Virus record (IMG/VR): IMGVR_UViG_643348551_000005
DNA length: 50,631 bases
Direction: 5' to 3' (one strand)
DNA from: a virus
Taxonomy: Duplodnaviria > Heunggongvirae > Uroviricota > Caudoviricetes
Shown here: positions 2,795 through 50,631 of the stretch, piece by piece
Numbering within the stretch: the stretch's first letter is position 1
Layout of the letters: each line of letters begins with the position of its first letter
Program-made: the position numbers and the translations under genes
The notes under the pieces: generated by a model
What the model saw: the letters and a program-made list of their open reading frames with translations, nothing else
Databases searched by the model: none
Told to the model about the DNA's origin: nothing

Positions 2795-5387
2795 TTGCAT
2801 ATTCCTTAGCCCAGCGGGGCAGTGATAATGTCTTAATAGCTGGCCATTCATCGGTATTCAGGCAGTCAGACAGGGTTCGCAGATTGCGGTGATATTCCTG
2901 TTGACCTGCCAGTTTTGCTTCTTCGCCCATCATGAAAATTTCAACCGGATAACGTCCGCATTCAATAGTTGTGCTGGCAACCAGAAAAACGAAAGTTGGC
3001 TGCACTCCAAACTGTGCTTCATAACCGTCACTGTAGAATGCATCCTGAACGTGATAGCGGTAGTCGTAATAAGCGGTTTTGAATCGTTGAATATCCGCCG
3101 TAGTTTTCACGTCCATGATCCAGTGAAATTCAGGGATAATTTTGTCCGGACGGCACCGACACAAAATTCCTGTTTCAGGATCTTCCCAGTAAATTGATGA
3201 TTCAGCGTGTCCGGCGCTTTCAACAAGCCATTGCCCCAGCGGCAAAGCCATAACGCTTTGATACATGAGTTCAATTTTCCGGCCTTCTTCCGCAGTGATA
3301 ACCGTTTTTCCTGTGCTTGCGCATTCCATCAGAAACGCTTTCTCTTCTTCTTTTCCGGCGTTTGTACGGCGGTTAAATTCAGGTGCTACGATAAAGCGGT
3401 TACTGAATTCTTCCGGTTCAAGTACCCGGCAGTGGAAAGCAGTTCCTAAATCGAGCGTTTTTGTCTTTGTGGTGTCCACGGGGGCATTTTTACGCCACAA
3501 ATATAGTGCCGGAGTATCAGCAATGTCATCGAGCTGAGACTTACTGATACCGGGACCCGCGTGGTAATTCTCATTCGAAATTCCGTAATAAATACCTGGC
3601 TCTATGTCTTCTACGATTACGGGATCTGCGACTTCGCCAGTTTCATCACTGCAATCGCGATGCGGATCGCTGCCAGCATTCTCATTGTGCGGATGTTCAG
3701 CGCCTTCCATTTCCTCCGGATCATTTTCCTTAGCTTCAACCTGACTCTCTTCATCGAATGTTTCCTGGTATGTTGCGTCGCCCATCACCGCACCACAGTC
3801 AGGGCAGTTATCCCCGCCAGTCTGGCCGCAGGCATTGCAGGCTATTTCCGGTTCCTGTTGCACTACTGGCTCAGGTTGATTCATATCCGGGCTGGTTTTT
3901 TCCGTTTCTGGCTGGTTCTGGTACACACAATCGCGAGTCTGGATCCCCTTTACCCATTTCGGATCGTTCGGGTCGCTAATTCCGTCAACAAATTCATCAC
4001 GTGATGCAGCAAGCAATTTATCGGCATCGACAGGATTTTTTGATGGAATGTTTTTCCGGGCTTTATGGAGTTCTGCCCGCAGTTCCTGATATTTCGCATC
4101 AACAGAATTTACCTGTGACTGAGCATCCAGCGGCTGCGTGTCCTGATGATGTTCAGTTGCGTCCGGTTCCATTGTTTCAGCCTCTCCCTGTTCAACTGCC
4201 GTTGTTCCAGATGGTTGCGGTTTTTCTTCATCATCCTGTTTTCCTTCTTCTGTTACTCGCTGCGGCATCGGGGCAGAGGAGCGACCGCAGGCAATATCCA
4301 CGATTTCCGGATCAGGGTTGGCATGATCGGTTTCAGTCAGTACTTTGTTCAGATATTCAGTGACGTGCGCGGGGATGACCTCGATCCCAATTGGTGCTTC
4401 TTTTACGGACGCAACCACGATGGCGCGGGAATAATCCAGCCCGCCAGGCATGGTGATGAATTTGTCGCGGAAAACAGAAAAGGGCGGTTTATTTTCAGCG
4501 ATAATTTCCTCAATGCGTTTAGCGTGTGCCGGATGAAGGTTATAGATGTCCAGATCCATTGAACGGGCCAGTACGCCAGTGGCTACGTCGCGCGCCAGTG
4601 ACGTCAGATCGTGTACGAAACCTTCGCCGCGATCGGTGAGGTTTCCGCCGCCAGCATTAGCACCGGAAGCCGTGCGAGTGATGTGTGAAACACGATTACC
4701 CTTCATCCACTCTTTTGTCAGCAGTCCTCGATCGGTGTAGTCAGCGTTCAGGTATGCTTCGAAAAAAGCAGTTATCAGTCCCAGGTTTGAATTACCAGGA
4801 TTAGGGAAAACTTTGTCAGTGTCACGAACCAGTTTGTGGAGTTCGCGAATTTCCAGCGGGTCGAGCAGGCTGGTTTTGTGGGAAACAGCCAGGGCAGTAA
4901 CAGCCGGTAGTTCTTCAGCCCGAGCAATGTGTAATGCCTGGAGTCCGTCGCGTGAAACGTGCGTTACCGGTTTTTCGCTGCCGTGTTGAGCAAGCCAACG
5001 AATGGGCAGTTCCTGGCCAGAAATTGGGAGTAGCATATTCTCCTCAATCTCAGTCATGTCTTCGCCGTTGACGTTGGTATTGCCTTGATAGTGAGCGTTG
5101 TCTGGTGCTGCTCCCGGTTTTAGTTCCCATGTCATGGAGTCTTTGCTGAGTTGATAGCGTTCACTCCAGGTAAAATCGATCTCACCTTCAGCGGGCAGGT
5201 CATTAACGACAGGAAAATTCGTGGCAACAGCTTTAAAATAGCTGCTCAGTTTTTTACCTGACTTAACGATCAGGTAGTCCAGAGTGGCACAGGTCGATTC
5301 AAAATCGTTGCTTGCCCACAGGACGACGTCAGGTTCACCGGATGATTTTTTCGCTTTCCGTAACAGGAAGAGTGGTTTTGTGCTCAT
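2787..5387 (-). CDS. recE: RecE exonuclease VIII (5'-3' dsDNA exonuclease)
   Basis: 866-aa ORF, the length of E. coli RecE, immediately upstream of and overlapping recT. Acidic low-complexity central region with a C-terminal nuclease domain. Confidence 0.93.
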
Positions 5388-8244: not shown

Positions 8245-8499
8245 ATGAACCAGAAAACACTTGAAGATGTAATCAAAACTGTTCGCGTTTCTGTTGTGGC
8301 CGACGTTTGTGGTGTCAGCCAAAGAGCAATCTACAAATGGATGGATAACGGAAAATTGCCTCGCACAGAATATACCGGCGAAACAAATTACGCTGAAAAA
8401 ATCGCTCATGCATCAAACGGATTATTTTCTGCCGATGCAATTTTAACTATTGGCAGAAATAAAACTACTACGAAAAAGCTGATGGGAGTTGATTCATGA
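8245..8499 (+). CDS. ydaS: YdaS, Cro/CII-like HTH protein (repressed by RacR)
   Basis: Start chosen at the ATG with an SD (GAGGG) upstream. HTH-like segment VADVCGVSQRAIYKWM. Position divergent from racR. Confidence 0.72.
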   Translation: MNQKTLEDVIKTVRVSVVADVCGVSQRAIYKWMDNGKLPRTEYTGETNYAEKIAHASNGLFSADAILTIGRNKTTTKKLMGVDS

Positions 8500-8918
8500 A
8501 AATCAAGCATGAGCACATCGAATCAGTGTTGTTAGCCCTGGCAGCCGAAAAAGGGCAGGCGTGGGTCGCTAACGCAATTACTGAAGAATATCTGCGCCAG
8601 GGGGGCGGCGAATTGCCCCTGGTACCAGGCAAGGACTGGAACAATCAGCAGAATATCTATCATCGTTGGTTGAAAGGTGAAACGAATGCGCAAAGGGAAA
8701 AAATTCAGAAACTGATCCCTGCGGTTCTGGCAATTCTTCCTCGCGAGCTGCGTCACCGACTCTGCATCTTCGATACCCTGGAACGCCGTGCATTACTGGC
8801 GGCGCAGGAAGCGTTAAGTAAGGCAATTGATGCGCATGATGATGCAGTCCAAGCCGTTTACCGGAAAGCGCATTTCAGCGGCGGCGGTTCTTCCGACGAT
8901 TCTGTCATTGTTCATTAA
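8496..8918 (+). CDS. ydaT: YdaT (140 aa), toxic partner of YdaS
   Basis: 140-aa ORF whose start overlaps the ydaS stop. Sequence and length match my recollection of Rac YdaT. Confidence 0.78.
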   Translation: MKIKHEHIESVLLALAAEKGQAWVANAITEEYLRQGGGELPLVPGKDWNNQQNIYHRWLKGETNAQREKIQKLIPAVLAILPRELRHRLCIFDTLERRALLAAQEALSKAIDAHDDAVQAVYRKAHFSGGGSSDDSVIVH

Positions 8919-11718: not shown

Positions 11719-12008
11719 ATATTGGCATTTTATCAGTGAATCATGCTGCATTTATAGGTATTTTTAGTTTAAATAGCATTGGTTCATATGTAAATTGACA
11801 TTTTTATGGTACAGGGTAGAACTAGTGTGGTTGCCTGCTTTGTGCCAGCTGCGGACATTACTTAAACAAATGCTGTATTATTTTATCGGTAAAGGTGGTA
11901 AAGAGTGGCCCTGAAGTGTCAAGATAATTATTAGCAGTATATATCATGCAAGAACCCATTTAATTTAGGCATGAAATTAATTTTAAAAAAGTAGAGGATT
12001 CCAATTAT

Positions 12009-13691
12009 ATGGCCAAACAGTTTATGTTAATGGAACCAAAAAATGAGAACTTCAATGAATTAATTGGAGGGTCAAATAAGTACATTGTTCCTAGATTCCA
12101 GCGAGACTATGCTTGGGATGTAGAACAATGGGAGGACCTTTGGAGTGATGTTACAGCACTTGATGATGAAGGTTTTCATTATATGGGATATATAGTTCTT
12201 CAACAAAAAGAACAGTATCAACATGAGGTCATTGACGGTCAACAACGATTAGTAACCTTGTCGATTATAGTTCTAGCAGCCATGAAAGCCATTAAAAACT
12301 TGATAGATAAAGGAGAGGAGGTTGAACAAAACACAGAGCGACTTGATGCAATAACAAAGACATTTGTGGGTAACAAAAACTTCGTTTCATTAAAGGTGGT
12401 TAGCAAGCTAGATTTAAATAGAAATAATAAAAGATATTTTCAAAGCATCTGTTCAAACTTAGAAGCTCCTAATACTCGTGGAACTACATCTACAAATAAG
12501 CTACTCAAGAAATGCTTTGATTTTTTCCAAAAGAAGGAGTTCGGTAATACCGGCGCTGAGATCGCACAGTTTATTGCCGATTTTTCTTCGAGTATGGTTT
12601 TTACAAAAATAGTTGTTCAAGATGATTTAAATGCATACAAAGTATTTGAAACTTTAAATGCGAGAGGAGTCCAGTTATCCACGCCAGATCTCTTAAAAAA
12701 CTATTTGTTTTCGATAGTAACTAAGGATGAGAAAATCGGAGATGAGGAATTAGATGAGTTAGATGAGCAATGGTCGGAGATTATCGATCAGTTGGGAGAA
12801 AGCAATGTTTCTGATTACATTAGGTATCATCATAATTCTCATAGAAAAATGGTCACAAAAAATAATTTATACACTTCAATGAGAAAAGTAATTACAACCC
12901 CTAAAGAAGCATACGATTATTTAAGATCACTGATAAATTCCGCACCTATTTATGCATCATTGATTAACCCGAATGATTCATGGTGGGCAGAGCAAGATAC
13001 TAAATACAAGAAGGCCATTCATTATCTGAACGGCATTAGACTCTTTAATATTAGACAGCCATTAACAGTATTGCTATCAGCTTTTAATCAATTCAATCCA
13101 GATGAGTTCGTCAGCCTGACTCGTTATTTATATATTTTATCAATTAGATACAATGTTATTTGTCATTTATCACCAAGTGAACAAGAAAGCATGTATAATC
13201 AAATTGCGATTAAGATCTCCAATAAGGAATACAAGAGAGCTAGCAATGTGAAAAATGGGGAGGAGTTTAAGAGGTTATATCCTGATGATAACGTGTTCTT
13301 TAATGCTTTTGAATTTCATCGAATGCCAAGTAGACAAACAGCCAAAAAAATTAGATTTCTCTTGGCTGAAATTGAACAATATCTTGGTAATAATTGCGAT
13401 CATGAAAAAGTTACACTCGAACATATTTGTCCATTTAACCCAGAGAAGGGGTGGTGCAATTCGTTTGGGGAGGGGGTTAATGACGTAAAGGATAGGTTAG
13501 GAAATATGGTTTTGATGGATAAAGATAATCTAAAAAGAGCTTCATTTGAAGTGAAGAAAAATGAATATGGAAAATCAAAGTATAAATTAGCGGCTAAGAT
13601 TACACAGTATCCTGAATGGAATTTAGAGGCTGTCAATGATTTTCAAAAATGGATGTCGGAACAAGCAGTAAATGTATGGAAAGTTGGTTAA
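12009..13691 (+). CDS. DUF262/DUF1524 two-domain nuclease, GmrSD-like (putative Type IV modification-dependent restriction enzyme)
   Basis: 560-aa ORF. N-terminal ParB/Srx-like DUF262 signature (IVPRFQRDYAWDVEQWEDLW ... VIDGQQRLVTLSII). C-terminal His-Me-finger DUF1524-like region (TLEHICPFNPEKGW ... RLGNMVLMDKDNLKRA). Lies in a low-GC island with an AT-rich upstream region. Confidence 0.75.
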   Translation: MAKQFMLMEPKNENFNELIGGSNKYIVPRFQRDYAWDVEQWEDLWSDVTALDDEGFHYMGYIVLQQKEQYQHEVIDGQQRLVTLSIIVLAAMKAIKNLIDKGEEVEQNTERLDAITKTFVGNKNFVSLKVVSKLDLNRNNKRYFQSICSNLEAPNTRGTTSTNKLLKKCFDFFQKKEFGNTGAEIAQFIADFSSSMVFTKIVVQDDLNAYKVFETLNARGVQLSTPDLLKNYLFSIVTKDEKIGDEELDELDEQWSEIIDQLGESNVSDYIRYHHNSHRKMVTKNNLYTSMRKVITTPKEAYDYLRSLINSAPIYASLINPNDSWWAEQDTKYKKAIHYLNGIRLFNIRQPLTVLLSAFNQFNPDEFVSLTRYLYILSIRYNVICHLSPSEQESMYNQIAIKISNKEYKRASNVKNGEEFKRLYPDDNVFFNAFEFHRMPSRQTAKKIRFLLAEIEQYLGNNCDHEKVTLEHICPFNPEKGWCNSFGEGVNDVKDRLGNMVLMDKDNLKRASFEVKKNEYGKSKYKLAAKITQYPEWNLEAVNDFQKWMSEQAVNVWKVG

Positions 13692-13815
13692 TCTATCAAT
13701 AAAACATAGGCGTAAGTGGGATGTTTTACTGACAGTTTGATGAGTCATGGATATCCTGCTAGGCCTACAACATGTCTTCAATTATATCATTACGAGATAG
13801 GCTCGATATTAACAA

Positions 13816-13839
13816 GTCCGCTCCTCGCTCAAAGCGGAC
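13816..13839. repeat. 24-nt motif GTCCGCTCCTCGCTCAAAGCGGAC (7-bp inverted repeat, 10-nt loop); copy 1
   Basis: Seen in sequence. Perfect stem GTCCGCT/AGCGGAC followed by CTTTCTTTTGC. A 20/24 direct-repeat copy lies at 15341-15364 on the other side of the 349-aa gene. Confidence 0.5.
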
Positions 13840-14218
13840 CTTTCTTTTGCATCTACCTTTTACTTTTCCCCTTTCTTCCGTATCTACTTTTCCCATGTAT
13901 ACGATTAATCCCCCCAGATACGACTTTAGCATTTTTCAGCTCTGCCGAGAAGAAAAAGGCGTGATTGTCAAAATTTAACGAAAACAAGCAGATTGTTGCG
14001 GATGGCGATTTTTTGTTTTCTTGGATGAAAAATGTGCATATTTTTGCTAAAAGTGGTTAAATATGTCTAACGGCGAATTAGCGACGAAGCGATACTCAGA
14101 TTTTCAACCAGAACGTTCGTCTGGCCTTAGATAGAATGGACATTTTTGGATCCACTTTGTCCACGGAGGGCCATATAAGTGCCAACGTTTTAAAAAAGCT
14201 ACTCAGGAGTATTTATAA

Positions 14219-15268
14219 ATGGGATTTATTTCACAACTATTCAATTTGCTTACCTCCAGGATAACTTCTGCAAAAACAATGACGCCTTCAAGTTTGCATG
14301 AGTTAACAGCTAACATAACTCCTAAACTCAAGAAACAAAACGGAAATATATCAATCGAAAACGATTGGCTTACTATTGATTCTCCTTATTTTTTTGGACA
14401 GGCGTATCTGTCTGCAAACAAACATTGGGTTGTAGGCTGTAGTGACTTTGATGGCAATGGAAGGGGAGGGCACCGGGAAAGTGGATTTGGAACAGTTGTT
14501 TTAGTTAATAAACCAACTTTTCGTATCCTTCATAAGCTCAGAACTATTGCCCGACCATTTAATGCTGCTGTCGCTGACACAGGTGATTATATTGTTCATG
14601 ACGCTGGATTTGGTTCTGCGCTGCAAGCTGATTTGATTGCTATTGATGTTGAAGGAAATGAAAAGTTTAGACGTCATTATGAAGCAAATATCTATAATAT
14701 CGGAATTTCTCATTGTGGTAAATACGCATCGGTTCAGACAGCCGCAGCGCCCGGTAAAGATGGAAATATCCTTGAGGTAATAAATCTGTGGTCAAAAACA
14801 ACAATATTTTCCATTAAACCTGAGTATGGATGGGCTGATAGTTATTTCTTCGATCTCGATGAAAATGGGGGGCTAAGATCGCTGAAAGTGAAATGCAAAA
14901 ATATTGGATACTTCAGATACACTGCCATCGGTATTCCCATTGACGTGGAAGCGTATAAAGATGCTTGTCTATATAAAGGAAATTTCAACCTTAAAGTAGA
15001 GGCCGCGAGAGCGCTTTTAAGAGAACATCCCAGTGAGAAGAATGCTCAAAAAGCATTGAAAGCAATTGAAATGGCTCTTAATGAAGGAGCGAAAGACCGA
15101 ACTGACTGGGCTGCAGCCGCATTTCGCATCAAAGGTGAAGCAAATGATTTACTTGGTAACTTTAGTGATGCTCTTGATGCCTATGAAAAAGCTTTGAGCT
15201 TTAATCCAAAAATAGGGGTTCAGAGACGAGTTAATGCTCTGCGTAAAAAATTACAGAGATTAAAATAA
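14219..15268 (+). CDS. Hypothetical protein (349 aa) with C-terminal TPR-like helical repeats; function unknown
   Basis: ATG with an SD (AGGAG) upstream. Low-GC codon usage like the neighbouring GmrSD-like gene. The C-terminal roughly 90 aa are helical-repeat-like (KALKAIEMALNEGAKDRTDWAAAAFRIKGEANDLLGNFSDALDAYEKALSFNP). No signal peptide and no catalytic motif that I can recognise. Confidence 0.6.
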   Translation: MGFISQLFNLLTSRITSAKTMTPSSLHELTANITPKLKKQNGNISIENDWLTIDSPYFFGQAYLSANKHWVVGCSDFDGNGRGGHRESGFGTVVLVNKPTFRILHKLRTIARPFNAAVADTGDYIVHDAGFGSALQADLIAIDVEGNEKFRRHYEANIYNIGISHCGKYASVQTAAAPGKDGNILEVINLWSKTTIFSIKPEYGWADSYFFDLDENGGLRSLKVKCKNIGYFRYTAIGIPIDVEAYKDACLYKGNFNLKVEAARALLREHPSEKNAQKALKAIEMALNEGAKDRTDWAAAAFRIKGEANDLLGNFSDALDAYEKALSFNPKIGVQRRVNALRKKLQRLK

Positions 15269-15340
15269 AACCAGCAAGTATCACGATAGAGAAATTTTTT
15301 CGGAACTACCTGTAGTGATTATGTTTCTATATACACCAAA

Positions 15341-15364
15341 GTTAGCTCCTCGTTCAAAGCAGAC
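15341..15364. repeat. Degenerate second copy (GTTAGCTCCTCGTTCAAAGCAGAC) of the 13816-13839 motif
   Basis: 20 of 24 positions identical to copy 1, same orientation, about 1.5 kb away. Together the two copies bracket the 349-aa gene. Confidence 0.45.
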
Positions 15365-15542
15365 TAGATGTTGGCTTCCGTCGGACTTGGCGTATTTAAA
15401 GAAGTGCTGGTAGTGACTGGTTGTTGTATTCCATTTCTACAGAACAAAATCACAGAAACTATACCCAATAGTTGTATTGAATCACTGACGAGACAGCCTC
15501 ATATTTATCAGGGCAGGTGCACGTCTAATACAGGAGGTTGTC

Positions 15543-15632
15543 GTGCTGGTTCTCAAGTGTGCGTTGGCTATTGCGGCTGTGGTGGCAATTTATTGTCTTG
15601 CTATTGTTCTTATGGATCGCCTTTCTGATTGA
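15543..15632 (+). CDS. Candidate small hydrophobic peptide (29 aa, GTG start)
   Basis: AGGAGG SD at 15532-15537, 5 nt before GTG. Hand translation VLVLKCALAIAAVVAIYCLAIVLMDRLSD gives one transmembrane-like helix plus a charged tail. No homology claimed. Confidence 0.3.
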   Translation: MLVLKCALAIAAVVAIYCLAIVLMDRLSD

Positions 15633-15752
15633 TTTCATATTGGCGAAGTAAAGGGGGTTAAATAGTATGGCTGCGGGGGCTTGAGGCTATCTGCCTTGGG
15701 CATGAAAACCAAAGGCAGATAGAAAAAGTCCCAGTTGATATTACTGTAGTGG

Positions 15753-17063
<1,311 letters not shown>

Positions 17064-17561
17064 TAAATCATATCAGGCGTAATACCACAACCCTTAAGTT
17101 AGCGCTTATGGGAGAAATCCCCGCAACCTCTGATGTATTATGCATCCTCAACGCAGCCACAGTTAACCTGATTGGCGGGTTTACTTCATCTGTAAATATT
17201 TTTATAAAAATAATGCCCACGCACAGCATAAAACAAAAAGTATTACAGATAAAAAAGGAACGTAATGTACAGATTTGTTGTTTTCCATATTTACTCACCT
17301 TAATATGATTAACCCTGATAGGGCTATTATTTCAGCGGTTTTCAAATGAGATATTATGGTGATCTGACAAATTTGCATAACATTAAAATTTAATTTGTTT
17401 AACCGCTTTTAATAATAAGCGTTGTTTGTATCCCAGCAATCTGTTGTTTGGTTTTTATTCCATTAAGGTGGGGGCTTTACACTGGAACCAGTTTATTTAT
17501 ACTTTATACGTCAGCCTGAACAACTGGCATCTGCTGCACTGCGCCATCGAGAGATTGAGAA

Positions 17562-19443: not shown

Positions 19444-20034
19444 GGGCTGGTTTATTGTATGCCAAATGATTATTAAAAAGGTTGTGTTAATAACAAAATC
19501 CGAAATAATATGCCTGCATATTTTTATCTTGCTTATATTCTGCATATTGTGCATAGCAGGCTCATCCCTGCAATCAAAACTGTATGATGAGTATTTTTTG
19601 TTTTCCTTTTTTCCAGTCATCTGATGATGACCTGCTTCTTTTTAATCCGGAACGACATCAGTTTTTTAAGATAATTCCTGCGAGTTATATGCATAAATAC
19701 CACAAACTCCGCATTTTATGTGGTTGGGAGTTGCCGGGCGCGCAGTGAGTTTGCTAAGAAAACTCCTGCATGGTGAATCCCCCTGTGCGGTGGGGTGATA
19801 CCATTAACCTTTTCTGTCGCCGACAGGTATCACGAACATTTTGTTCACCGGGAGGCACCCGGCACCATGCACTTCAATAGATTCTCTCCACATTATGGAT
19901 ATTCTTTCAGAATATCCCACGCAGACTTTGTGTAAATGTTAACAAATGTGCGTTTTATTTGATCTGATTCGCTGTTTGAGCGTCCAAAACAACGGTATAT
20001 ATAATCCTTTACTATATGACATATGTGAGGAAAA

Positions 20035-20463
20035 ATGGGTTTTCGTAGCGCATCAATTCTTACGTTGATTATTAGTGGGATTATTATCGGGTGCACTGAT
20101 GCTGTATCGACAAATTATCATGACCGTACATCATATTACTCCGATAAAGCAATAGAGACACAGTATGTGAGTTCATCTGAACGTACTTCTGATGTTAGTG
20201 AGGATATCCGTCTGTATGCCCATCAAATCAAGAGCGCCATCGAAAAACAGTTCGGGGATGCGAGTAAGTATTCAGGAAAAGAGTGTACACTGAGAATGCA
20301 TATGGCCCCGAATGGCCTTCTACTGGAGGTTAAAAGAGAAAGTGGAGACCTCGATTTATGTCGTGAAGCGATGAATGCGATAAAGAATGCTGATATACCT
20401 GCCCCCCCTTCGCCGGAAGTATATAAAGTATTTCAAAATGGGGTGCTGGATTTTAAACCCTGA
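20035..20463 (+). CDS. Lipoprotein with a C-terminal TolA-domain-III-like domain (paralog 1)
   Basis: SD (GAGGA) upstream. Signal peptide with lipobox (IIIGC). The C-terminal roughly 75 aa (YAHQIKSAIEKQFGDASKYSGKECTLRMHMAPNGLLLEVKRESGDLDLCREAMNAIKNADIPAPPSPEVYKVFQNGVLDFKP) closely resemble the C-terminal domain III of E. coli TolA as I remember it (...YAGQIKSAIESKFYDASSYAGKTCTLRIKLAPDGMLLDIKPEGG...YEVFKNAPLDFKP). Confidence 0.7.
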   Translation: MGFRSASILTLIISGIIIGCTDAVSTNYHDRTSYYSDKAIETQYVSSSERTSDVSEDIRLYAHQIKSAIEKQFGDASKYSGKECTLRMHMAPNGLLLEVKRESGDLDLCREAMNAIKNADIPAPPSPEVYKVFQNGVLDFKP

Positions 20464-20613: not shown

Positions 20614-21009
20614 GTGGGATTAAAGAAAATCGTTATGTTGACTTTTTGGGTCGGTTTTGTTGCGGGATGCACACCTTTACACCCTTCAGATTGCCACAAA
20701 ACTACTGCTACAGGTAGTTGCAGTTCAGGACGCTGGGATGATCAGGATGAATGGGGGGCGCAAGCGCGGGGAATCAGAGCTGCAATTAATGCCAAACTTG
20801 ATGAGCCGCATAACTGGAAAGGGAAAAAATGCAGGTTGCATATGGAATTCTCTCAGGATGGCACGGCGTTAAAAATATCTACCAGTAACGGTGATAAAGC
20901 CTATTGCGAAGCGATAAAGTCCGCAGCTCATAAAGCCAAATTTCCGGCCTTCAACAATCCGGAAGTCTACAGAGATTTTCAGAAATCTGGCTTTGACATG
21001 CGAGGTTAG
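20614..21009 (+). CDS. Lipoprotein with a C-terminal TolA-domain-III-like domain (paralog 2, GTG start)
   Basis: SD (GAGGAG) 6 nt upstream of GTG. Signal peptide with lipobox (VAGC). C-terminal region (GKKCRLHMEFSQDGTALKISTSNGDKAYCEAIKSAAHKAKFPAFNNPEVYRDFQKSGFDMRG) is a diverged copy of the same TolA-III-like fold, with the two cysteines conserved. Confidence 0.65.
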   Translation: MGLKKIVMLTFWVGFVAGCTPLHPSDCHKTTATGSCSSGRWDDQDEWGAQARGIRAAINAKLDEPHNWKGKKCRLHMEFSQDGTALKISTSNGDKAYCEAIKSAAHKAKFPAFNNPEVYRDFQKSGFDMRG

Positions 21010-22434: not shown

Positions 22435-22571
22435 AATCTTAACTACAATATGATTCATTTTGATGATTGTTTCATAAGGAACAGTGAAGTAAGATCTAAG
22501 AGGAGTTAAATTTTATACAGTATAATCATAATATTGCAGCAAGGTGGTTATAATTGAAAGAATATTTAGAT

Positions 22572-24029
22572 ATGAATACATCTCATGTAAGAGTTGTTAC
22601 TCATATGTGTGGGTTCCTGGTTTGGCTCTATAGTCTTTCAATGTTGCCACCAATGGTTGTAGCATTGTTTTATAAAGAAAAAAGCCTGTTCGTTTTCTTT
22701 ATAACTTTCGTTATATTTTTTTGCATTGGTGGCGGAGCGTGGTATACAACTAAGAAATCTGGCATTCAATTACGTACCCGTGATGGGTTTATTATAATTG
22801 TAATGTTTTGGATTTTGTTTTCTGTTATTAGTGCATTCCCTTTATGGATTGACTCAGAACTTAATTTAACGTTCATTGATGCTCTGTTTGAAGGGGTTTC
22901 TGGAATAACAACAACAGGAGCAACTGTAATTGATGATGTTAGTTCATTACCTCGGGCATATTTGTACTATCGGTCACAGTTAAATTTTATAGGTGGTTTA
23001 GGAGTTATTGTTCTGGCGGTTGCTGTATTGCCATTATTGGGTATTGGTGGTGCAAAGCTTTATCAGTCAGAAATGCCGGGGCCATTTAAGGATGACAAAC
23101 TCACTCCCCGCCTGGCCGATACGTCACGGACACTGTGGATAACTTATTCTTTATTAGGTATTGCTTGTATTGTCTGTTATAGACTTGCAGGAATGCCTTT
23201 GTTTGATGCTATTTGTCACGGGATTTCCACAGTTTCGCTTGGTGGTTTCTCAACTCATAGCGAGAGTATCGGATATTTTAATAACTATTTGGTTGAGCTG
23301 GTGGCTGGTTCTTTTTCCCTGCTATCGGCTTTCAACTTCACTCTTTGGTATATTGTTATTAGCAGGAAAACGATAAAACCTTTAATCAGAGATATTGAAC
23401 TTCGTTTCTTTCTGTTAATAGCCTTAGGGGTGATCATTGTTACCTCTTTCCAGGTCTGGCATATAGGTATGTATGACTTGCATGGAAGTTTTATTCATTC
23501 GTTTTTTCTTGCCAGCTCCATGCTCACTGATAATGGTTTAGCTACGCAGGATTATGCAAGTTGGCCCACGCACACGATAGTGTTTTTGCTGTTGTCAAGT
23601 TTCTTTGGGGGATGTATAGGTTCAACTTGTGGTGGAATTAAGTCACTTCGATTTCTTATACTTTTCAAACAAAGCAAACACGAGATAAATCAGCTTTCTC
23701 ATCCCAGAGCGTTGTTGAGTGTAAATGTAGGAGGGAAGATAGTTACAGATCGTGTAATGAGGTCTGTATGGAGTTTCTTTTTTCTTTATACTCTCTTCAC
23801 GGTGTTTTTTATACTGGTGTTAAATGGTATGGGATATGATTTTCTTACATCATTTGCAACAGTGGCTGCATGTATTAATAATATGGGATTAGGTTTTGGG
23901 GCTACTGCATCGTCATTCGGAGTGCTTAATGACATTGCAAAATGTTTAATGTGCATAGCTATGATTCTTGGTCGCCTTGAAATTTATCCTGTTATTATAT
24001 TGTTTTCAGGTTTTTTTTGGCGCTCCTAA
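22572..24029 (+). CDS. trkG: TrkG potassium uptake transporter (TrkH/TrkG family), prophage moron
   Basis: 485-aa polytopic membrane protein starting MNTSHVRVVTHMCGFLVW..., matching Rac-encoded TrkG. Low-GC gene placed after the lysis cassette. Confidence 0.9.
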   Translation: MNTSHVRVVTHMCGFLVWLYSLSMLPPMVVALFYKEKSLFVFFITFVIFFCIGGGAWYTTKKSGIQLRTRDGFIIIVMFWILFSVISAFPLWIDSELNLTFIDALFEGVSGITTTGATVIDDVSSLPRAYLYYRSQLNFIGGLGVIVLAVAVLPLLGIGGAKLYQSEMPGPFKDDKLTPRLADTSRTLWITYSLLGIACIVCYRLAGMPLFDAICHGISTVSLGGFSTHSESIGYFNNYLVELVAGSFSLLSAFNFTLWYIVISRKTIKPLIRDIELRFFLLIALGVIIVTSFQVWHIGMYDLHGSFIHSFFLASSMLTDNGLATQDYASWPTHTIVFLLLSSFFGGCIGSTCGGIKSLRFLILFKQSKHEINQLSHPRALLSVNVGGKIVTDRVMRSVWSFFFLYTLFTVFFILVLNGMGYDFLTSFATVAACINNMGLGFGATASSFGVLNDIAKCLMCIAMILGRLEIYPVIILFSGFFWRS

Positions 24030-50047: not shown

Positions 50048-50631
50048 TGGCATTCAGAATGAGTGAACAACCACGGACCATAAAAATTTATAATCTGCTG
50101 GCCGGAACTAATGAATTTATTGGTGAAGGTGACGCATATATTCCGCCTCATACAGGTCTGCCAGCAAACAGTACCGATATTGCACCACCAGATATTCCTG
50201 CTGGCTTTGTGGCTGTTTTCAACAGTGATAAGGCATCGTGGCATCTCGATGAAGACCATCGGGGTAAAACGGTTTATGACGTAGCGTCAGGGGACGCGTT
50301 ATTTATTTCTGAACTCGGTCCGTTACCGGAAAATGTTACCTGGTTATCGCCGGAAGGGGAGTTTCAGAAGTGGAACGGCACAGCCTGGGTGAAAGATGCA
50401 GAAGCAGAAAAACTGTTCCGGATCCGGGAGGCGGAAGAAACAAAAAACAGCCTGATGCAGGTAGCCAGTGAGCATATAGCGCCACTTCAGGATGCTGTAG
50501 ATCTGGAGATCGCAACGGAGGAAGAAACCTCATTGCTGGAAGCCTGGAAAAAATATCGGGTGTTGCTGAACCGTGTTAATACAACAACTGCACCGGATAT
50601 TGAATGGCCAACAGTACCCATTATCGAATAG
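50047..50631 (+). CDS. tfa: Tail fibre assembly protein (Tfa)
   Basis: 194-aa product [61 protein letters not shown]... matches lambda/Rac Tfa from memory. Overlaps the stf stop (ATAATG). The stop is the last codon of the window. Confidence 0.9.

Follow-up and report, generated by a model that had tools for sequence, protein, structure and literature searches.

The stretch of DNA analysed here, hereafter called the window, comprises 50,631 nucleotides of a tailed-phage genome (Caudoviricetes; IMG/VR record IMGVR_UViG_643348551_000005). It is identical (100%) to a part of the chromosome of Escherichia coli SE11 (NC_011415.1) and represents, by its annotated gene content, a Rac-type lambdoid prophage. 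In this study, we analysed an AT-rich cargo island of this prophage at positions 11719-15744, which carries a gene for a GmrSD-like nuclease of 560 amino acids (aa) and, on the same strand, a gene for a protein of 349 aa. A preliminary description made from the sequence alone had proposed that both genes form one defence locus, the second gene possibly encoding a new effector or a specificity partner of the nuclease. Our analysis points to another solution: the nuclease corresponds to HEC-06, an antiphage protein already described as a single-gene system, and the two genes are independent of each other. To this joint reading we assign a probability of about 0.72.

Gene content and setting of the island

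To the left of the island, the prophage carries recE, racC, kilR, sieB, a cI/cro-like pair, ydaT/U/V and the genes for DUF1627 and DUF977 proteins. To the right, it continues with the DUF1367/DUF1364/DUF1133 genes, lysis genes, and trkG. The two open reading frames (ORFs) of the island were found as described before, i.e. at 12009-13691 (+, 560 aa) and at 14219-15268 (+, 349 aa). Its visible AT-richness was also confirmed: the GC content was 0.370 for the span 11719-15744 and 0.364 for the cassette in the narrower sense (11769-15365), compared with 0.496 in the left and 0.491 in the right flank. The value of the cassette is the minimum of all 3.6-kb spans in the window (mean 0.472, standard deviation 0.045).

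The island is a variable cargo slot of the Rac-type lambdoid prophage and extends from lygF/DUF977 to the nin-like hok-DUF1367 region. Comparison of homologous prophages showed that differing genes occupy this position between lygF/DUF977 and hok/mok-DUF1367 in other lambdoid phages, in agreement with the earlier view of a cargo site between modules. In phage vB_EcoS-666R9, for example, several small ORFs and a gene for a DNA-binding protein are present instead, while phage mEp460 holds a 449-aa ORF on the opposite strand.

Identity of the 560-aa nuclease

The following features were assigned to the nuclease gene:

12009..13691, + strand: HEC-06, single-polypeptide GmrSD-like (DUF262 + DUF1524) nuclease, 560 aa, WP_001118594.1
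12054..12710, + strand: GmrSD_N / DUF262 (ParB-like NTPase) domain, aa 16-234 (Pfam)
12234-12248, + strand: DGQQR motif, aa 76-80 (sequence)
13278..13661, + strand: GmrSD_C / DUF1524 His-Me (HNH) domain, aa 424-551 (Pfam)
13419-13433, + strand: EHICP motif, aa 471-475 (sequence)

Profile searches with the Pfam and PADLOC models bore out the proposed GmrSD-type DUF262/DUF1524 nuclease. Both Pfam domains were detected above their gathering cut-offs on the same polypeptide, namely GmrSD_N (PF03235; 1.7e-37, 129.9 bits at a cut-off of 33.2; aa 16-234) and GmrSD_C (PF07510; 1.9e-17, 63.8 bits at a cut-off of 23; aa 424-551), and the DGQQR and EHICP motifs lie within them. The PADLOC model PDLC04154 for HEC-06 matched over practically the full length (4.3e-221), with residues 1-559 of the protein aligned to positions 1-566 of the 569 positions of the profile. 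A homologue search showed that HEC-06 has thousands of homologues.

HEC-06, the Hma-embedded candidate 06, was introduced by Payne et al. (bioRxiv 10.1101/2024.01.29.577857) and is represented in PADLOC by the models PDLC04154-04157. According to this preprint and its Table S2, a lone synthesised gene under about 150 bp of its native promoter reduced plaquing in E. coli K-12 deltaRM. The tested clone derived from E. coli MOD1-EC1687 (WP_096851903.1; 1683-nt gene), and defence was lost in the mutants Q79A, R80A, E471A, and H472A, while S46A had no effect. An independent paper (PMC11411939) states that HEC-05 and HEC-06 "function independently", unlike the two-protein system TgvAB. A citing preprint from 2025 mentions that HEC-06 was reported to block T4, and describes a 22%-identical Bacteroides homologue with defence against T-even phages, for which the unmodified T4-GT7 served as reference.

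The gene in the window has the same length as the tested clone (1683 nt), and all of the 399 printed amino acids as well as 398 of the 399 printed nucleotides agree with it. The residues S46, Q79, R80, E471, and H472 of HEC-06 occupy equal positions in the window protein. Judged by its sequence, the 560-aa protein is thus effectively the published and tested HEC-06, and since HEC-06 works as a single gene, the nuclease part of the locus is already known.

Evidence for independence of the two genes

The space between the genes contains two features:

13692..14218, no strand: intergenic spacer of 527 bp; 13708-14162 lies outside both homology units
13816-13839, inside the spacer: weak terminator-like hairpin followed by a U-rich tail

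Each gene lies in a DNA homology block of its own. The HEC-06 block (11980-13707) has 76% identity to two viral contigs (L062 and L063), and the block of the 349-aa gene (about 14163/14188-15365) matches, at 85-89% identity, an island of Pectobacterium as well as a phage-like contig with the homologue of the 349-aa protein. A stretch of about 455 bp in between (13708-14162) is shared with neither block. The two viral contigs end 300-500 bp past the HEC-06 homologue, and the DNA that follows the homologue shares no homology with the spacer of the window; as they run off shortly after the homologue, they are uninformative with respect to its neighbour. Part of the spacer (13816-13945), including the hairpin, matches unannotated E. 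coli DNA at 72-78% in one chromosome and one plasmid. The hairpin itself was no better than those in shuffled sequences (z = -0.6).

The cassette with both genes was found in 31 of 5,426 complete E. coli genomes, at an identity of at least 99.7% and with both genes always present. It rides on at least two prophage backbones, i.e. Rac with ydaUVW and a backbone with a TA8571-type replication module. Because this is one recent and near-clonal cassette, the linkage of its genes has no independent evolutionary weight. Among the carriers, the 349-aa gene is broken by IS1 in PSJ-16 and LR-03 with HEC-06 being intact, and HEC-06 is disrupted by IS1, frameshift, or 5′ truncation with the 349-aa gene being intact in W409, OY754416/OY754389, and LR-45. 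These inactivations of one or the other gene are independent.

In none of the other loci compared were the two families found side by side. No HEC-06 homologue was present within 10 kb of relatives of the 349-aa gene (24-52% identity) in 37 genome loci (0/37), and none stood beside diverged viral copies of this gene. Also, no GmrSD gene was found alongside the Pectobacterium copy (81%), which borders an AlpA/DUF6387 island from within, and the Serratia copy (52%). A GmrSD gene is missing from about 45 loci that carry a relative of the 349-aa protein. An 88% copy of the 349-aa gene belongs to another phage moron region, in which Arc, Bro, and ANT genes are present and the upstream side of which is cut off. 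HEC-06 homologues with 80-86% identity occur as solitary cargo in four unrelated slots: in a Salmonella element with relaxase and type IV secretion system (T4SS) genes, in an Erwinia conjugative element beside Pycsar, at the end of a Klebsiella P4-like satellite, and in a Cronobacter prophage beside the integrase. Nine loci with such homologues (about 80-86%), all of them mobile elements or viral contigs, were searched by tblastn with ten diverse members of the family of the 349-aa protein, and no relative was found in any of them.

We therefore regard HEC-06 and the 349-aa gene as two single-gene cassettes, which arrived and move independently. One defence locus of two genes, as assumed before, is not supported in view of the separate homology blocks, the single near-clonal cassette, and the sufficiency of HEC-06 alone. 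Likewise, the role of a specificity partner for the 349-aa protein was not substantiated, as the families are not adjacent in any other locus compared.

Sequence and predicted fold of the 349-aa protein

The second gene was subdivided as follows, including a C-terminal domain with similarity to tetratricopeptide repeats (TPR):

14219..15268, + strand: 349-aa propeller+TPR protein WP_000505828.1, independent cassette with the unit about 14163/14188-15365
14219..14257, + strand: N-terminal peptide MGFISQLFNLLTS, short, amphipathic and conserved, a putative membrane tether; aa 14-43 after it form a disordered linker (family N-termini)
14348..14923, + strand: all-beta WD40-like partial propeller, aa 44-235, about 17 strands (AlphaFold2 model)
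14945..15262, + strand: C-terminal TPR-like helical domain, aa 243-348 (AlphaFold2 model)

Depending on the record, WP_000505828.1 is labelled as 'tetratricopeptide repeat protein' or as 'YfgM family'. Membership in the YfgM family was rejected, since there was no NCBIfam match and no predicted transmembrane helix and the likeness is confined to the TPR part. Searches with PADLOC, and with NCBIfam at E <= 0.01, gave no match to the protein, and Pfam gave only sub-threshold TPR matches at aa 300-331. AlphaFold2 on the family alignment yielded a confident model (pLDDT 87.6, pTM 0.79) with a short N-terminal helix, a disordered linker at aa 8-39 (pLDDT <50), the all-beta domain, and six helices at aa 243-348. 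Thus, the TPR-like C-terminus noticed before is present as a helical tail in the predicted structure, while its Pfam matches stay below the threshold. Comparison of the model with the BFVD viral fold library returned generic WD40 matches only (TM 0.25-0.39), and a PDB sequence search returned only consensus TPR proteins and weak matches to designed propellers. A match to phrog_74 (E = 0.0026) covers the TPR tail only and was rejected as spurious; together with the varying content of the slot, this argues against a conserved structural phage gene. As the protein has no catalytic domain, its suggested role as a new effector is unlikely.

With respect to the N-terminus, 117 of 173 near-full-length family members begin with a hydrophobic/amphipathic peptide of the type M-x-phi-phi-S-K-L-L, and 13 of the 173 have one or two predicted transmembrane helices instead. 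In the sequences read, basic residues flanking these helices would put the propeller+TPR body in the cytoplasm. The 349-aa protein itself has no Cys or lipobox within the first 40 aa, no classical signal peptide, and no predicted transmembrane helix.

Family members, their neighbours, and nuclease-fused relatives

A word-indexed search delivered 44 clusters, in which conservation extends over the full length and numerous Gly, Asp, Trp, and Asn positions are invariant. The exhaustive profile search raised this to 282 clusters (50% identity) at E <= 1e-30 and 1,015 clusters at E <= 1e-10, nearly all of them with 300-350 aa. The family is patchy and located on mobile elements, not part of a core genome. 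A literature search via the accession, Rac prophage/DUF262, propeller/TPR/VRR-NUC, and prophage hotspots found no description of it.

For a survey of the neighbours, the flanking ORFs were pooled with two genes on each side, resulting in 112 proteins. PADLOC matches among these were RmrA (the RosmerTA antitoxin), Mokosh MkoA/MkoC, PDC-S37, CBASS SAVED effectors, Hhe, CapP, PbeA, and PDC-S06, and Pfam matches were HTH+M78, HipA, and ResIII. MkoC (2e-265) is encoded directly upstream on the same strand in the Noviherbaspirillum/Oxalobacteraceae loci. Direct neighbours elsewhere are a PDC-S37/Hhe-like helicase (Rhodopseudomonas), a DrmD/BrxH-like SNF2 helicase, and a CBASS SAVED nuclease (5.5e-214). 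In Serratia fonticola (L071, 184-9270), the genes for a 2,138-aa protein with a faint NACHT match, the propeller+TPR protein, and a 366-aa Mrr_cat/OLD-TOPRIM-like protein follow each other on one strand, and this row may be a multi-gene defence locus. Some family members adjoin ordinary metabolic genes. Clustering of the ORFs from 35 loci revealed no neighbour conserved beyond close relatives. Since the neighbours differ by clade and none is conserved, the pattern is that of an autonomous resident of defence islands.

In sister subfamilies, the same propeller+TPR module is followed by further domains. A VRR-NUC domain stands after it in the members P0123 and P0173. This fusion is represented by more than 110 clusters of about 550-560 aa, mostly from Sphingomonadales/Rhodobacterales, which cover at least 92% of the fusion query, and is therefore no artefact. 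The window protein aligns directly with it over aa 51-344 (E = 4e-30, 29% identity). A distant member of 662 aa (P0138) combines the module with a DEDD RNase_T exonuclease and a BRCT domain, the C-terminal part matching the PADLOC candidate PDC-S48. In another distant member of 545 aa (P0150), the module is followed by a Cys-rich, zinc-ribbon-like tail. PADLOC v2 has no model for either the stand-alone or the VRR-NUC form. Searches with phmmer and tblastn for separate homologues of the fused nuclease domains beside stand-alone members found none.

The VRR-NUC fusions of Erythrobacter/Croceicoccus are cargo of integrative and conjugative elements (ICEs) and directly follow an AbiEi/AbiEii pair with a 4-bp overlap. 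They also adjoin a ubiquitin-like Multi_ubiq/ThiF/BubE cluster and an HTH+M78 pair, and a Sphingobium fusion adjoins a CBASS operon and an Mrr-type nuclease. In three sequences from Erythrobacter, Croceicoccus, and a metagenome contig (L073, 5958-8680; L078, 5958-8665; L079, 1200-3907), the fusion gene starts 4 bp before the end of the AbiEii gene, which is in turn preceded by a DUF6088/AbiEi-like gene. The AbiE pair and the propeller+TPR+VRR-NUC gene could form a three-gene operon.

Island borders and further features of the prophage

The junctions of the island and the adjacent element have the following positions:

11719..12008, + strand: left junction and HEC-06 upstream region; cassette start at about 11769, start of the HEC-06 unit at 11980
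11852-11881: promoter-like site, consensus match only
15269..15744, no strand: right junction; TPR unit ends at about 15365, and 15345-15744 is prophage backbone
about 15745-17002, - strand: element of the IS3 family of insertion sequences (IS); transposase ORFs 15753-16966, imperfect terminal inverted repeats, programmed frameshift

Genomes of the TA8571 type match from query position 51, i.e. window position 11769, which marks the left edge; from about this position on, the near-identical cassette is common to the two different prophage backbones. The natural right edge of the cargo lies at about 15345-15365. The following backbone (15345-15744; query 4046-4445) matches phages Tritos, Evi, and mEp460 and is located upstream of hok/mok in other phages, with MokW downstream of it in mEp460. 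An 86-aa Cys/Gly-rich ORF at 15368-15628 (+) within this conserved backbone upstream of hok has no Pfam or PADLOC match and is probably spurious.

Homology to the IS-free relative NCTC9699 (L002) breaks off at 15744 and restarts at 17110. A segment of 265 bp of this relative (8446-8710), which includes hok, is absent from SE11, where the IS3-family element plus about 100 bp are found instead. In many other carriers of the cassette, IS421 is present at the site of the IS3-family element. The latter is a later, strain-specific and secondary insertion that replaced hok and lies outside the cargo island; IS-free relatives carry hok at the same place, and others carry IS421. The IS3-family element that had been taken as the right border of the island is present, but the natural boundary is the one given above. 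IS421 or IS1 was also seen at or near the hok spot in other cassette carriers, so this region seems to be hit by IS elements repeatedly. The Rfam model isrC, an Hfq-binding small RNA (sRNA), matched with 150 bits at 16812-16934 (-), over the 5′ part of the first transposase ORF of the IS3-family element, and this 'sRNA' model may merely recognise the IS sequence.

In a promoter scan, the number of promoter-like sites in the island was not above the expectation from shuffled sequences. As there was no such excess and the spacer hairpin was no better than shuffles, we make no claim on transcription units. An Rfam scan of the island found no RNA family, and a tRNA scan of the window found no tRNA. 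Elsewhere in the window, matches at Rfam gathering level were obtained for the RalA antitoxin sRNA of the Rac RalR/RalA system (1557-1735, +), STnc100 (19738-19924, +), and IS009 (50390-50588, +).

The lysis cassette is closely preceded by two ORFs (20035-20463 and 20635-21009; L001, 14736-15164 and 15336-15710) with the annotation TolA or TolA C-terminal-domain protein. They are unusual cargo, and their products might interfere with Tol-dependent entry of phages or colicins. The trkG region (22554-24029) in the middle of the prophage has a low GC content itself (about 0.37-0.39). It is followed at 24167-50631 by a long series of ORFs on the + strand, which, at 40.5-48 kb, includes a GC-rich part (0.56-0.62) with possible tail genes. 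The SE11-type copy of Rac may be complete, in contrast to the defective Rac of K-12.

Proposed functions and alternative explanations

In the mechanism that we propose, the N-terminal DUF262 domain of HEC-06 with its DGQQR motif would bind and hydrolyse nucleotide, and the C-terminal DUF1524 His-Me domain with its EHICP motif would cut invading phage DNA, with no partner being needed. Going by its relatives, the substrate would most probably be DNA with modified bases, e.g. that of T-even phages. The 349-aa protein can be pictured as a cytoplasmic protein-binding scaffold of a WD40-like beta part and a TPR part, probably held at the inner membrane by its N-terminal amphipathic helix. Most likely it would act alone in phage sensing or exclusion, by binding a protein of the phage or of the host close to the membrane, and presumably this binding, not catalysis, would be its mode of action.

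With its circumstantial links to immunity, the 349-aa protein is a plausible and reasonable stand-alone defence candidate and not yet a finding. That it has a defence role of its own is a tentative proposal, to which we give somewhat less than even odds. At the lower end of the same range we place the wider idea that the family consists of undescribed immune or conflict proteins, i.e. inner-membrane-tethered propeller+TPR modules recognising a component of phages or mobile elements. In this case, the effector-less form would defend by sequestration, by exclusion, or by recruiting a nuclease in trans.

Several points weigh against the reading of the locus as a whole. The printed sequence of the tested HEC-06 covers no more than 399 of the 560 residues, one or a few substitutions in aa 400-560 are possible, and the accession of the tested clone (WP_096851903.1) differs from that of the window protein (WP_001118594.1). 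The supposed preference of HEC-06 for modified DNA is drawn from the citing paper and from a distant homologue. Despite the lack of co-occurrence elsewhere, an opportunistic interaction of the two proteins within this particular cassette is possible, and the nuclease fusions in the sister subfamily show that the propeller+TPR module can work with nucleases. Furthermore, the association with defence islands is qualitative, the match counts are inflated by generic helicase and HTH-protein models of PADLOC, and the inner-membrane-tethered cytoplasmic scaffold is deduced from sequence patterns.

Among the alternatives, the one that survives best is still somewhat unlikely in our view: the 349-aa protein would be a passenger or moron outside defence, such as a host-physiology scaffold of the envelope or chaperone type, or would provide another benefit to the prophage. 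The missing catalytic domain and the lack of any PADLOC, NCBIfam, or functional Pfam match fit such a role, just as the generic nature of TPR and propeller folds and the members beside metabolic genes do. The label 'YfgM family' in some records also hints at an envelope- or chaperone-type role, but neither a signal peptide or lipobox nor a YfgM match in NCBIfam was found. Furthermore, several unrelated clades show strong and family-specific defence neighbours, the nuclease-fused sister subfamily resides in ICE cargo and defence islands, and the family is patchy and borne by mobile elements and not core, all of which speaks against a passenger.

Clearly less probable is a two-component system in which the propeller+TPR protein serves as sensor, specificity factor, or regulator of HEC-06. 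In its favour, the two genes lie side by side with the same orientation and occur together in 31 of 31 carrier genomes, sister subfamilies have the module covalently joined to nucleases (VRR-NUC; DEDD exonuclease + BRCT), and two-protein GmrSD-like systems such as TgvAB are known (PMC11411939). However, HEC-06 suffices alone in the published assays, and the linkage goes back to a single near-clonal cassette, in which a 527-bp spacer separates two genes that each have their own homology block and that were each found inactivated with the other one intact. To this are added the about 45 family loci without GmrSD and the nine loci of close HEC-06 homologues without the 349-aa family. Least probable of all is a counter-defence or self-protection function of the prophage, by which the 349-aa protein would neutralise an immune protein of the host or of a rival, or phage inhibitors of GmrSD-type enzymes: it is built wholly of protein-binding domains and its family, borne by prophages and further mobile elements, has various immune genes as neighbours, but many members are found in chromosomal defence islands and not in phages, the nuclease effector domains of the sister subfamily fit an immune protein better than an inhibitor, and no known anti-defence protein resembles the 349-aa protein.

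With two independent cassettes as the preferred solution, the locus adds nothing new on the nuclease beyond its natural home, which is a swappable slot of Rac-type prophages in about 0.6% of the complete E. coli genomes. HEC-06 also travels as a solitary cassette on conjugative elements, P4-like satellites, and other prophages. A useful by-product is the sizeable uncharacterised propeller+TPR family near Mokosh, CBASS, RosmerTA, AbiE, and Bub-like systems. If one member were to protect against phage, this would provide a new sensor module of bacterial immunity with effector-fused and effector-less versions.

Comparison with known systems

In immune proteins of the STAND/Avs/NLR-like type, TPR or beta-propeller repeats serve as binding surfaces, and these proteins are located in defence islands. 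Unlike the 349-aa protein, STAND/Avs sensors carry the NTPase (NACHT/NB-ARC) and an effector on one polypeptide and are far larger; neither Pfam nor the AlphaFold2 model gave an NTPase domain in the 349-aa protein, which is thus not of this type. SieB is annotated in the same prophage. Superinfection exclusion of the SieB type is the work of single prophage morons, which counteract incoming phage at the inner membrane or in its vicinity. The 349-aa protein, for which a membrane association is presumed, has no sequence or fold similarity to SieB. With the VRR-NUC fusions it shares the module order. These fusions are found in defence islands and ICE cargo and are named only 'VRR-NUC domain-containing protein'; they have about 230 additional C-terminal residues, which form a PD-(D/E)XK nuclease, whereas the window protein ends after the TPR part.

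Like the locus in the window, TgvAB from VPI-2 of Vibrio cholerae consists of a GmrSD-like nuclease and an adjacent gene (PMC11411939). According to the same source, TgvAB needs both proteins and HEC-06 does not, and the neighbour in the window has no conserved linkage to GmrSD. Two other relatives were rejected as identities of the nuclease. For BrxU, the RLFDS motif (R[LIV]FDS) is missing, no BrxU was among the best 25 PADLOC matches, and the context is a prophage and not BREX; for the tested HEC-06, the preprint gives 23.7% identity to BrxU over 11% of the alignment and likewise no RLFDS (10.1101/2024.01.29.577857). The matches of the SspE models are confined to aa ~15-120 (3.9e-16 at best), and no Ssp or phosphorothioation genes are present in the locus.

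In their general architecture, GmrSD (EcoCTGmrSD), BrxU, SspE, and the window protein are alike: all of them combine DUF262 and its DGQQR motif with a DUF1524 His-Me nuclease, and a long linker joins the two domains. HEC-06 and the copy in the window both have 560 aa and share DGQQR and EHICP as well as the match to the hidden Markov model over the full length. They differ in their context: the HEC-06 family was found via genes embedded in Hma systems, whereas the copy in the window is cargo of a Rac-type lambdoid prophage.

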